Of a stretch of 48,944 bases of DNA, positions 42,001 to 45,000 are shown in pieces. Position numbers: made by a program. The stretch is from a virus. Lineage: Duplodnaviria; Heunggongvirae; Uroviricota; Caudoviricetes. The stretch's first letter is position 1. Each line of letters opens with the position of its first letter. Location of the stretch: IMG/VR virus record IMGVR_UViG_2718217715_000009; one strand, written 5' to 3'.

Positions 42001-45000
42001 TTCATCGCCATGCGGATGTGCTCATGTTTGATTTTCATGAATCATTTGCCTCTTGATGCTTCGGGTATGATCGTTTTCGTCATTTGGTTGCTTCATCGAC
42101 ATATTCTGCGAATAACATGACGAGCGTCGTAAGTATGTCCAATCAACATCAGGACGAAGTTCTTCACACAGGACACCACCTTTTGTTGCTCGTTCAATCG
42201 CAGGACATCTCTCAGCAGGCAACTGACGTACACCTTTGATCCATTGATTTACGCTTGGAGGAGATACACCTAAAAGCCTAGCCATTGCTGATTGCCCACC
42301 GACAACAGCACAAGCTCGTTTGAATGAATAGTTATCTTTTTTCATCGAATGAACTCCAAAAAACACACAATAATATTAGGCTTAGCCTAATGCAATTGTC
42401 AATAGGCTATGCCTAACGCTTCGAGAGTAGGTATTGCCTAATGCGATGCACATAGGAGACTATTAAGCAATGCTTAGTGGTAAAGACTTAGGCCGAGCGA
42501 TAGAGCAGGCCATTAACAAAAAAATTGCATCAGGAGCCGTCAAATCAAAGGCGGAAATCGCACGTCATTTCAAAGTCCAACCACCATCAATCCATGACTG
42601 GATTAAGAAAGGTTCGATAAGTAAAGACAAACTTCCAGAACTATGGCGTTTCTTTTCTGATGTGGTTGGTCCAGAGCATTGGGGGCTTAACGAATACCCC
42701 ATACCAACCCCATCCACTTCAGATACAAAAAGTGAACTTTTAGACATAAACAGCCTTTATCAAGCCGCCTCTGATGAAAAAAGAGCAATTGTGGCTTTCC
42801 TCTTATCTGGAAATGCTACGGAGCCTAGTTGGGTTGATCATGACGTTCGTGCCTACATTGCCGCAATGGAAATGAAGGTAGCTAACTATCTGAAAAATCA
42901 AGAATCAAAACGGAAAAGCCAGAACATCACCAAGACAGGAACTTAAACTTATATGGTCCGACGGGAAATTCCTAGTTCCCGTTAGTTAACTCCTACTACC
43001 TCTCCCACAAACCATCACCTATTAGGTCGCACCCAAATCATTAGGCGTAGCCTATTGACAAGCAATTAGGCATTTCCTATAGTTTTCCCATACCAACCCA
43101 TCCCGTCCCACACAATACAGGGCAATACCTAGAGTTACCCGGCAGTGGTCAGGGATTAAGTAGCCAGCCCGAGGCGTAAGAACATGACGGCAGGGTTCAA
43201 CTTTAACTATGCAGCAGGTTTTTGTTCCGCTACCCCGGCGTTAAGGGGATATGAGGTCAGCATGGATACTCTTGATCTTGGCAACAACGAATCTCTGGTG
43301 TGCGGCGTGTTTCCCAACCAGGACGGCACGTTCACCGCGATGACGTATACCAAAAGCAAAACGTTTAAAACCGAATCTGGCGCGCGTCGCTGGTTAGCAA
43401 GAAACTCTGACTAATGAAATCTGGTAATTAAGGAATCCTCCACGGGGGGAGAGTGGTGCACACGCGCCGGACACAAGCAAGCATCCGGCATGCTCTTTAA
43501 CAATCTGGATATCCATAACAGTAAAAATCTACAGATTGCCGTTCAGTTTTCTGGCCAACTCTTCAATAGATGGAGGTGATACGTAATCCGGATTTTTATT
43601 CATAAGAAACTGATCTTCACAGTACAGGCACCTGCTTTTATGAAAAAATTCATATTCTCTAACCGGGAATGGCTGAAGTATCGATACTATCTTTTGTCCA
43701 AAACATTTTGGACAAAGATGCATGATTATGCTGCCGCCGTTCACGGTTACCTCCTTCGAGTACACAAAAGTTCCCGACTCAAGTTGGCTAAGGATATAAC
43801 CTTCCGTCTGAGCCTCAAAGTTTTCAAATTCTGCAATTTTAGCTTTGAGAGAAGCATTTATTTCTTGATAAGTGCCCACCAGCTCAACGAGAGACACGCA
43901 TTCGCGCTGAATAGATGCAAGCTTTGAGTTCAGTTCACCAATAGCCGCATTTACTTCAGCTTGAGTTTTTGCCTCGTTCATTAGTTTTGCAATCTGGGCG
44001 GTTTCACGAATAGCCGTCATTGCTGCCGTTAATTCAGCGATCACATTCAATACTCTTATTGTTGTTGGGGATATCCAGATTAACAAGATCCTTGTTGTTG
44101 GGGAATAACGGGGACCACCTCGCCTGACGTGGTAAAAAGCAGGCACACAACACGAAAGCACACGGCGAGGTTGCTGGTTCATAGATAGCCTATCGTTAAA
44201 TTTTCGTCGACCGTGCGCTTCCGGTTGTGGCAGTCCGCGAAATGGCGCGGCGGTAAGTATGGCTGGGGTTTCCTCCATTGCTCCAGAAAATGCACCGGGT
44301 TGTCAGGTTGACCATACGCTTAAGTGACAACCCCGCTACAACGCCCTCTGTTATCAATTTTCTGGTGACATTTGGCGGTATCAGTTTTACTCCGTGACTG
44401 CTCTGCCGCCCTTTTTAAAGTGAATTTTGTGATGCGGTGAATGCGGCTAAGCGCACGCGGAACAGTTAAAACCAAAAACAGTGTTATGGGTGGATTCTCT
44501 GTATCCGGCGTTAATTGTTAACTGGTTAACGTCACCTGGAGGCACCAGGCGCTGCATCACAAAATTCATTGTTGAGGACGCGATAATGGAAACGTTATTA
44601 CCAAACGTTAATACGTCTGAAGGTTGTTTTGAAATTGGTGTCACTATCAGTAACCCTGTATTTACTGAAGATGCCATTAACAAGAGAAAACACGAACGGG
44701 AGTTATTAAATAAAATATGCATTCTTTCAATGCTGGCCCGTTTACGTCCGATACAAAAAGGATGCTGGCAATGAATACAGCATTTGCACTTGTTCTGACA
44801 GTTTTTCTTGTTTCCGGAGAGCCAGTTGATATTGCAGTCAGTGTTCACAGGACAATGCAGGAGTGTGTGACTGCAGCAACCGAACAGAAAATTCCCGGTA
44901 ACTGTTACCCTGTCGATAAAGTTATTCACCAGGATAATAACGAAATCCCGGCAGGTCTTTAAAACAGTTCCGTAATAAACATCCGATTTCATTCTTATAT

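Follow-up and report, generated by a model that had tools for sequence, protein, structure and literature searches.

A RacR repressor gene between two operator-like modules in a lambdoid prophage of Escherichia coli O157:H7

We analyzed the IMG/VR virus record IMGVR_UViG_2718217715_000009, a DNA of 48,944 nt referred to below as the window, with a focus on the gene for the repressor RacR and on the palindromic boxes found on both sides of it. The window is a lambdoid prophage of Escherichia coli O157:H7 and was 100% identical to the prophage of strain 4276, with its integrase end adjoining potC. Tail, head and lysis genes are followed by a Q-like antiterminator, a DnaT-like O and a P replication gene, and then by the immunity region, where ydaT (-) and ydaS (-) precede racR (+), a DUF1391 gene (+), DicF, dicB, an exonuclease pseudogene, xis and int (Table 1). 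The racR gene is divergent from ydaS, behind which ydaT, the DnaT-like O gene and the P gene follow on the minus strand, as expected for a lambdoid gene order. By analogy with the right and left operators and promoters of lambda, the boxes and promoters upstream of racR are called OR- and PR-like and those downstream OL- and PL-like.

Table 1. Positions in the window of the predicted and annotated features of the RacR immunity region
Feature	Position	Strand	Remarks
ydaT-like gene	41613-42038	-	CII analogue, second gene of PR-like operon; PF06254 YdaT_toxin, E 2.6e-10; annotated YdaT family
ydaS-like gene	42022-42345	-	Cro analogue, first gene of PR-like operon; PF15943, E 3.8e-30; P22_Cro, E 1e-8; HTH_3
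YdaT-box	42028-42045	-	Minus strand ATGATTCATGAAAATCAA = ATGATT-n6-AATCAA; putative function; spans ydaT start codon
PR-like promoter	42373-42402	-	K-12 PydaST homologue; -35 TTGACA 42402-42397, 18-bp spacer, -10 TAATAT 42378-42373; scan 10/12
OR box a	42375-42391		Perfect palindrome ATTAGGCTTAGCCTAAT; 0 mismatches, 26.3 bits; overlaps PR spacer and -10
OR box b	42401-42417		AATAGGCTATGCCTAAC; 2 mismatches, 23.1 bits; overlaps PR -35 by 2 nt; part of inverted repeat I1 with OL module
OR box c	42426-42442		AGTAGGTATTGCCTAAT; 2 mismatches, 20.5 bits; 36 bp before racR ATG; counterpart of family-wide -35 box AATAGGAATTGCCTAA
OR box d	42462-42478		ATTAAGCAATGCTTAGT; 3 mismatches, 10.8 bits; weakest; centred on racR start codon
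racR	42470-42946	+	Repressor, 158 aa; annotated racR (RefSeq)
Hairpin	42960-42983	+	8 bp, from RNA fold; after racR stop; candidate weak terminator or insulator before PL, low confidence
OL box 1	43040-43056		ATTAGGCGTAGCCTATT; 1 mismatch, 25.5 bits; overlaps PL -35 by 2 nt
PL-like promoter	43055-43083	+	TTGACA-17-TATAGT; scan 11/12; predicted start near 43090
OL box 2	43065-43081		ATTAGGCATTTCCTATA; 3 mismatches, 18.4 bits; over PL spacer and -10
PL leader	43088-43261	+	Right-hand mosaic junction of immunity cassette; homology with heteroimmune prophages starts here
DUF1391 gene	43262-43414	+	ydfA/ydaF-like, first gene of PL operon; PF07151, E 6.6e-30
DicF	44360-44411	+	Small RNA in PL operon; Rfam RF00039, 77 bits, E 1.7e-16
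dicB	44586-44774	+	Cell-division inhibitor in PL operon (annotation); then DUF1482, exonuclease pseudogene, xis, int

The RacR box is a 17-bp palindrome, ATTAGGC-N3-GCCTAAT, of which four copies lie upstream of racR and two downstream. When the 48.9-kb window was searched with the pattern ATTAGGCNNNGCCTAAT and up to three mismatches, seven matches were obtained against 1.63 expected, a number reached in 0/100 shuffles. Six of the seven fell inside 42375-43081, and a Poisson estimate for six boxes in this single 707-bp stretch was ~3e-11. A match at 20823 looked like chance and was rejected. A position matrix was then built from non-Escherichia boxes only, to avoid circularity, and it ranked the same six boxes as the top six in the window, with scores from 26.3 to 10.8 bits compared to a mean best score of 10.4 bits in shuffles. 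No score above 6.5 bits was found outside the region when the whole window was scanned for further RacR boxes.

A promoter scan of 41900-43600 returned exactly two sites, the PR- and PL-like promoters, and both are built alike: one box overlaps the -35 hexamer by 2 nt, and the other lies over the spacer and extends 4 nt into the -10 hexamer. From centre to centre the boxes are spaced 26 bp (PR) and 25 bp (PL) apart, in keeping with promoter spacers of 18 and 17 bp, respectively. In addition, positions 42396-42421 and 43036-43061 form a 26-nt inverted repeat (I1) with 88% complementarity. The inverted operator modules on either side of the repressor gene that were proposed in the first-pass annotation of this DNA are thus borne out by the six top-scoring boxes and by this repeat, and the scan recovered both promoters that the modules had been said to overlap, the rightward TTGACA-N17-TATAGT downstream of racR and a divergent promoter for ydaS upstream of it. 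The proposed ~50-bp module itself needed revision. The palindrome and TTGACA are present on both sides, but the ATTAGGC half-site at 43065-43081 is a complete, imperfect second box, and the upstream region holds four boxes rather than a palindrome and a half-site.

The palindromes between racR and ydaS are arranged over divergent promoters in the lambdoid manner, with two boxes over TTGACA-18-TAATAT and one over the racR ATG. The corresponding region of the Rac prophage in K-12 holds three GCCTAA/TTAGGC repeats and formed three complexes with RacR in published work (PMC5700373). DNase footprints of RacR were reported together with the consensus T/A-TAGGC-n3-GCCTA-T/A and included an operator over the racR ATG ('operator 3'), and RacR blocked PydaS in vitro and activated PracR3 (PMC9638921). 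PydaST was later mapped experimentally as TTGACA-18-TAATAT, and 'four operators' were described (PMC11879457). With OR published in K-12, the OR half of the window is therefore a close homologue of a known system. K-12 Rac aligned with the window column for column, both PR hexamers were invariant columns, and all six boxes and both promoters were kept although the flanks differ. Box d is likely the site of racR negative autoregulation. An ATG-centred box was found in all related loci scanned except one (L019), and in the window its right half, GCTTAGT, departs from GCCTAAT because it doubles as the codons for RacR residues 1-3 (M-L-S). The Rac-type regions of Escherichia have four OR boxes (at -87, -61, -36 and 0 from the ATG) and the other relatives (L007-L025) have three (at -60, -35 and 0); the extra 26-bp box unit was apparently gained in Escherichia and shifts PR one unit away from racR. 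The only intrinsic terminator called by the terminator scan was located at box a and is an artefact of the palindrome.

Beyond the repressor gene, a second operator-like cluster lies over an early promoter, as in lambdoid phages, with the boxes at 43040 and 43065 over TTGACA-17-TATAGT. The boxes are located 94-135 bp beyond the racR stop codon, and the OL-OR distance is ~650 bp. A candidate third OL box at 43020-43036 (ATTAGGTCGCACCCAAA) was rejected, having four mismatches and standing outside the top 20 matrix matches; a better version occurs in E. ruysiae only. The hairpin between racR and the OL boxes shows one compensatory change from G-C to A-T relative to K-12, as read by eye in the alignment. 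As an intrinsic terminator after racR it was rejected: its z-score was -0.67, it has no T tract, and it was not called by the terminator scan.

Conservation of the downstream module was examined in related loci that were collected by a scan with RacR alignments and limited to one genome per species. This gave 23 loci, and together with one S24-type homologue 24 loci were compared. A downstream pair was defined as two boxes on the same strand, 24-26 bp apart, past the repressor gene. Such a pair with an adjoining TTGAC-type -35 was present in 17/24 loci, from both Gamma- and Betaproteobacteria, and none was found in 4800 shuffled control loci. The spacing was 25 bp in 16 of the 17 loci and 26 bp in one, and box 1 ran directly into TATTGA in 16 loci and into TATTGT in L029. 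In 15 loci aligned on the boxes, box 1 was kept as ATTAGGCnnnGCCTATT+GAC and the second box ended in a TAATAT-type -10 after a 17-bp spacer, so that TTGAC(A/T)-17-TA(A/C/G)(T/C)AT was kept across related loci. The DNA around the pair was unrelated between taxa (Mixta, Morganella, Proteus, Erwinia, Achromobacter, Burkholderia, Pigmentiphaga and Herbaspirillum), and the pair lay 68-2490 bp past the repressor stop codon, sometimes behind extra small genes; in lambda, rexAB likewise stand between the repressor gene and OL. No RacR box at up to one mismatch was present in two heteroimmune E. coli prophages (L027 and L028) that carry different repressors and have the ydaT and PL-leader flanks in common with the window. 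Covariation between operators and repressors was uninformative as evidence, since there is next to no variation in either the DNA-binding domain or the boxes within the RacR family; the near-invariance of the boxes in turn follows from that of the RacR N-domain.

The right-hand border of the conserved cassette could be placed at the PL-like promoter. Matches were obtained in 2925 E. coli genomes, of which 532 covered at least 80% of the query, and most of the others matched only from approximately query position 143 (window 43089). The alignment with the two heteroimmune prophages confirmed that homology starts at ~43088, the predicted PL +1. OL and PL therefore belong, together with racR, to an exchangeable cassette, and it is by such a cassette that immunity regions are classically defined in genetics. 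A direct repeat of 13 nt, CCCATACCAACCC, was observed in two exact copies at 42698-42710 and 43087-43099 (0.07 expected in the window at up to one mismatch). The first copy codes for the linker that joins the DNA-binding domain of RacR to its C-terminal domain, a point at which C-terminal domains are swapped among homologues, and the second lies at PL +1 on the mosaic junction, where the K-12 counterpart has a 1-nt deletion. The repeat might be due to chance, or it might be a recombination linker for module exchange. A structured RNA or a nut/put-like element in the PL leader was considered and rejected, as the leader folded no better than shuffles (z +1.38) and had no Rfam match.

The region is very probably a lambdoid immunity region in which the RacR gene stands between OR- and OL-like operator/promoter modules that control both early operons. 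RacR dimers would bind the 17-bp palindromes at OR and OL. The two strongest OR boxes, which cover the PR -10 and abut the PR -35, would switch PR off, and the two OL boxes, in like geometry with one abutting TTGACA and the other over the -10, would do the same at PL, such that RacR on strong boxes would keep RNA polymerase off both near-consensus promoters. In analogy to what was seen in vitro for K-12, box c, 36 bp ahead of the leaderless-type racR start, may serve autoactivation, and the weak box at the ATG may limit RacR synthesis by autorepression when RacR is high. Loss of RacR would then fire both early operons together, PR giving YdaS and YdaT and PL giving DUF1391, DicF, DicB, Xis and Int. 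We infer that RacR binds at OL and that PL is active in this strain. The 25-26 bp box spacing is compatible with pairwise cooperativity, and both cooperativity and OL-OR looping over ~650 bp are plausible.

The likeness to the lambda OL/OR arrangement with a Rac-type repressor, which had been noted in the first-pass annotation, is supported for OR by the published K-12 data and for OL by the comparative evidence, the mosaic junction and K-12 transcriptomes. When RacR was reduced in K-12, ydaG, ydaF, kilR, ydaE and racC were up 40-70-fold by RNA-seq, and recE, recT, xisR and intR were also up (PMC6765115, PMC11014345, bioRxiv 10.64898/2026.09.06.749655). We found no description of RacR sites downstream of racR in the papers searched, which cover only the OR side of K-12 Rac; an older description is possible. 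As far as we found, the OL/PL module of this prophage has not been explicitly described before, yet it is exactly what the lambda paradigm predicts.

Several points weigh against this interpretation. OL box 2 is imperfect in the window, with three mismatches and 18.4 bits, and the downstream pair was not seen in 7/24 related loci, in which 2.4-3 kb were examined. RacR binding at OL is predicted from the boxes, and the K-12 probes used for electrophoretic mobility shift assays and footprints spanned only -186 to +85 around the racR start. YdaS, YdaT or prophage excision, for instance, could account indirectly for the derepression seen in the downstream operon of K-12. Finally, several structural genes and the exonuclease are broken in the annotation, and the switch may therefore be left without a lytic cycle to govern. 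Frameshifts are annotated in the genes for the major tail protein, the portal and the major capsid, and an internal stop in that for the exonuclease (16215-16932, 18471-21049, 21261-23197, 45055-47526). The prophage is probably defective, unless the frameshifts and the internal stop are assembly errors.

An alternative is that the downstream boxes act mainly as anchors for looping or cooperativity that tighten repression at OR, or as roadblocks against read-through from racR, rather than as the operator of an active promoter. In its favour, no more than ~650 bp separate OL from OR, looping between the two operators is known for lambda CI (PMC8630535), and a weak hairpin follows racR. We nevertheless consider this improbable, since the near-consensus TTGACA-17-TATAGT overlaps the OL boxes, the TTGAC-type -35 and TAATAT-type -10 are kept with the boxes in the 15 aligned loci, and the junction between box 1 and the -35 is found in 17/17 pairs. 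The wide range of distances between OL and the repressor gene also means that no fixed loop geometry is conserved. Moreover, the downstream genes are derepressed in K-12, and looping could exist in addition to the control of an active PL.

Even less probable is that racR-ydaS-ydaT is a toxin/repressor addiction module, similar to a toxin-antitoxin system, in which the boxes merely silence toxins. The Pfam names YdaS_toxin and YdaT_toxin point that way, and K-12 can lose racR only when ydaST is deleted as well (PMC5700373). Against this, the gene order is that of cI, cro and cII followed by the DnaT-like O and the P replication genes, YdaS matches P22_Cro, and a published critique by Jobling applies here as well (PMC5917428). 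K-12 YdaT binds DNA as a tetramer and activates the reverse promoter in the manner of CII, through an ATGATT-n6-AATCAA box (PMC11879457). A CII-like role was shown for the homologues of both K-12 and CP-933P (PMC11879457, PMC9986795). An addiction module would also leave the second operator/promoter module, which drives dicBF, xis and int, unexplained. With regard to a type II toxin-antitoxin system, the Pfam names alone point in that direction, and gene context and published biochemistry favour Cro/CII-like regulators. The 'toxin' names are historical, and YdaS and YdaT are more probably regulators of the Cro and CII kind than two toxins. Of the toxic switch that the repressor region had been suggested to form together with ydaS-ydaT, the part that stands is that derepression is lethal in K-12; the two proteins are transcription factors in the Cro and CII positions (PMC5917428, PMC11879457). 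The YdaT-box of the window has one mismatch to TTGATT-N6-AATCAA, and its specified positions are identical to those of the K-12 repeat (PMC11879457). It matches the K-12/CP-933P box that activates a reverse, PRE-like promoter toward the repressor gene, and a possible -10, TATGAT, was read by eye nearby at 42066-42071 (+).

A last reading takes the downstream module for a functionless remnant left by an inverted duplication of OR, as the 26-nt, 88% complementary repeat might suggest. This is hardly credible for a module that is kept in 17/24 loci of two proteobacterial classes amid unrelated flanks, whose boxes are absent from heteroimmune relatives and whose promoter hexamers are retained.

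The repressor of the window was 92% identical to K-12 RacR over 158 aa, which places it in the RacR family. It has an N-terminal helix-turn-helix (HTH) domain of the XRE/lambda-cI type at approximately residues 1-73, and these first 73 residues are almost invariant in the family. An AlphaFold2 model (predicted local distance difference test score, pLDDT, 80.5) showed five helices in the N-domain, disorder in the linker (80-90) and a C-domain that is also helical. Its fold matches were XRE/lambda-cI/Cro-type HTH proteins, including the N-terminal domain of lambda cI, at non-significant E-values (0.1-0.8). A Pfam search with RacR of the window gave no match, and a sequence search found no solved RacR structure. 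The RacR HTH was 41% identical to that of YdaS over 29 aa, which fits the competition of both proteins for the same boxes reported for K-12. With no Pfam match and an all-helical C-terminal domain in the model, RacR does not fall into the class of S24 self-cleaving repressors, and self-cleavage mediated by RecA is therefore unlikely. Induction is probably not by RecA-mediated cleavage, and induction by an antirepressor is a speculative option. A P22 immI-like cluster was observed among the tail genes (9523-11178), with an Ant antirepressor at 9523-10401 (-) and Arc-family genes at 10665-10814 (-) and 10924-11178 (+), and a second protein with an antirepressor N-terminal domain is encoded in the lysis cassette at 27859-28428. 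The Ant/Arc cluster and the antirepressor-like protein of the lysis cassette are candidate induction routes for a RacR that lacks S24.

RacR-type N-domains with the same OR boxes were also found fused to Peptidase_S24, as in LexA and CI, in betaproteobacterial and some enterobacterial loci (L013, L015, L016, L018, L020, L021, L023, L025 and L029; Achromobacter, Pigmentiphaga, Herbaspirillum, Azoarcus and other genomes). The OL pair was kept in most of these loci and not in L020 and L021. Judging from these sequences, one operator specificity occurs with two different C-terminal modules. A tentative extension, which we regard as possible and rather unlikely to hold in full, is that the RacR DNA-binding domain and the OR/OL boxes form an old, unusually conserved cassette in prophages of Gamma- and Betaproteobacteria, in which the C-terminal 'induction' domain is exchangeable and either S24 or a non-cleavable helical domain. 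If so, one operator code would be wired to different induction signals, and the box at the start codon would tie the operator to the repressor sequence and slow the divergence of immunity. It would be a further twist if a repressor that lacks a C-terminal domain of the CI type looped OL to OR over only ~0.65 kb.

Control of both early operons by RacR would complete the wiring of the Rac-type switch. The direct targets of RacR would be the ydaS-ydaT side and the other early operon, which comprises kilR, recET, xis and int in K-12 and DicF, DicB, xis and int in this O157:H7 prophage. This would offer a simple explanation for why depletion of RacR derepresses the whole left arm and triggers excision, and it points to which DicF/DicB copy of O157:H7 falls under RacR control. 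For the field the step is incremental, because an OL/OR architecture is the expected lambdoid design.

The closest known system is K-12 Rac. Besides RacR itself, it shares the distances of the boxes from the ATG, both hexamers and the spacer of PR, and on the downstream side the two boxes with TTGACA-17-TATAGT; its published elements are the operators O1-O3, later reported as four, PydaST and PracR1-4. The prophage of the window differs from it in the insertion site adjoining potC, in the espN and nleL cargo, in the type of ydaT and of replication genes, and in a PL operon of DUF1391, DicF and dicB compared to ydaG, ydaF, kilR, racC and recET.

With lambda, the region shares divergent repressor and cro genes, a CII-like activator, multiple 17-bp palindromic operators over PR and the repressor promoter, and a second operator cluster over PL beyond the repressor gene, with PL firing in the direction of the repressor gene. 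Adjacent operators in lambda are spaced 23-24 bp apart, compared to 25-26 bp here. The operator sequences are unrelated, and there are four OR and two OL boxes here as opposed to 3+3 in lambda, with OL and OR ~0.65 kb apart instead of 2.4 kb. In contrast to the lambda repressor, RacR has no S24 autocleavage domain, and one box is centred on the repressor start codon. No N-like gene or nut site was identified here, and K-12 YdaS does not repress racR (PMC9638921).

CP-933P of EDL933 is another lambdoid prophage of O157 and also has homologues of ydaS and ydaT. Operator repeats were described there in the intergenic region and at a downstream PL-like promoter (PL933P, OL1-3), with CI-analogue repression in reporter assays (PMC8630535). 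It differs in its repressor, PaaR2, in an operator consensus of the GTTTAGTAA type and in a paaA2-parE2 toxin-antitoxin pair between the repressor gene and PL. In Qin, operator sequences flank dicA at dicCp and dicBp (PMC10448788), and the operon on the PL side of the window is likewise of the dicBF type (ydfA-like, DicF, dicB). The repressor here is RacR and not DicA, and the cassette boundary at PL +1 shows that a Rac-type immunity cassette has been combined with an operon of the dicBF type. Short repressors without an S24 domain are also known from Gifsy (GfoR/GfhR) and SPC32H (Rep), where they are non-cleavable and controlled by antirepressors. RacR has been described as Gifsy-repressor-like and unresponsive to SOS (PMC10448788), and the SPC32H Rep structure 5d4z was among its weak fold matches, with non-significant E-values. 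In contrast to those systems, no cognate antirepressor of RacR has been identified.

In this prophage, a Qin-type left operon with dicBF thus stands next to an immunity cassette of the Rac type, and from the position of the boxes its DicF/DicB copy would be under the control of RacR, not DicA. Two loci stood apart in their assigned taxa: a contig binned as 'Candidatus Nanosynbacter' (L005), with a RacR 92% identical to that of the window and all E. coli-type boxes, and a metagenome-assembled genome of 'Alistipes senegalensis' (L019), with a RacR-like N-domain. Both appear to be prophage DNA of Proteobacteria that was mis-binned or came in as contamination. Elsewhere in the window, cargo and accessory genes were observed at 7-8428 and 36278-36433, comprising IS2/IS3 remnants, a gogB fragment, espN (2088-5489), nleL (6080-8428) and the hokD toxin gene; espN and nleL are annotated as type III secretion system effectors.

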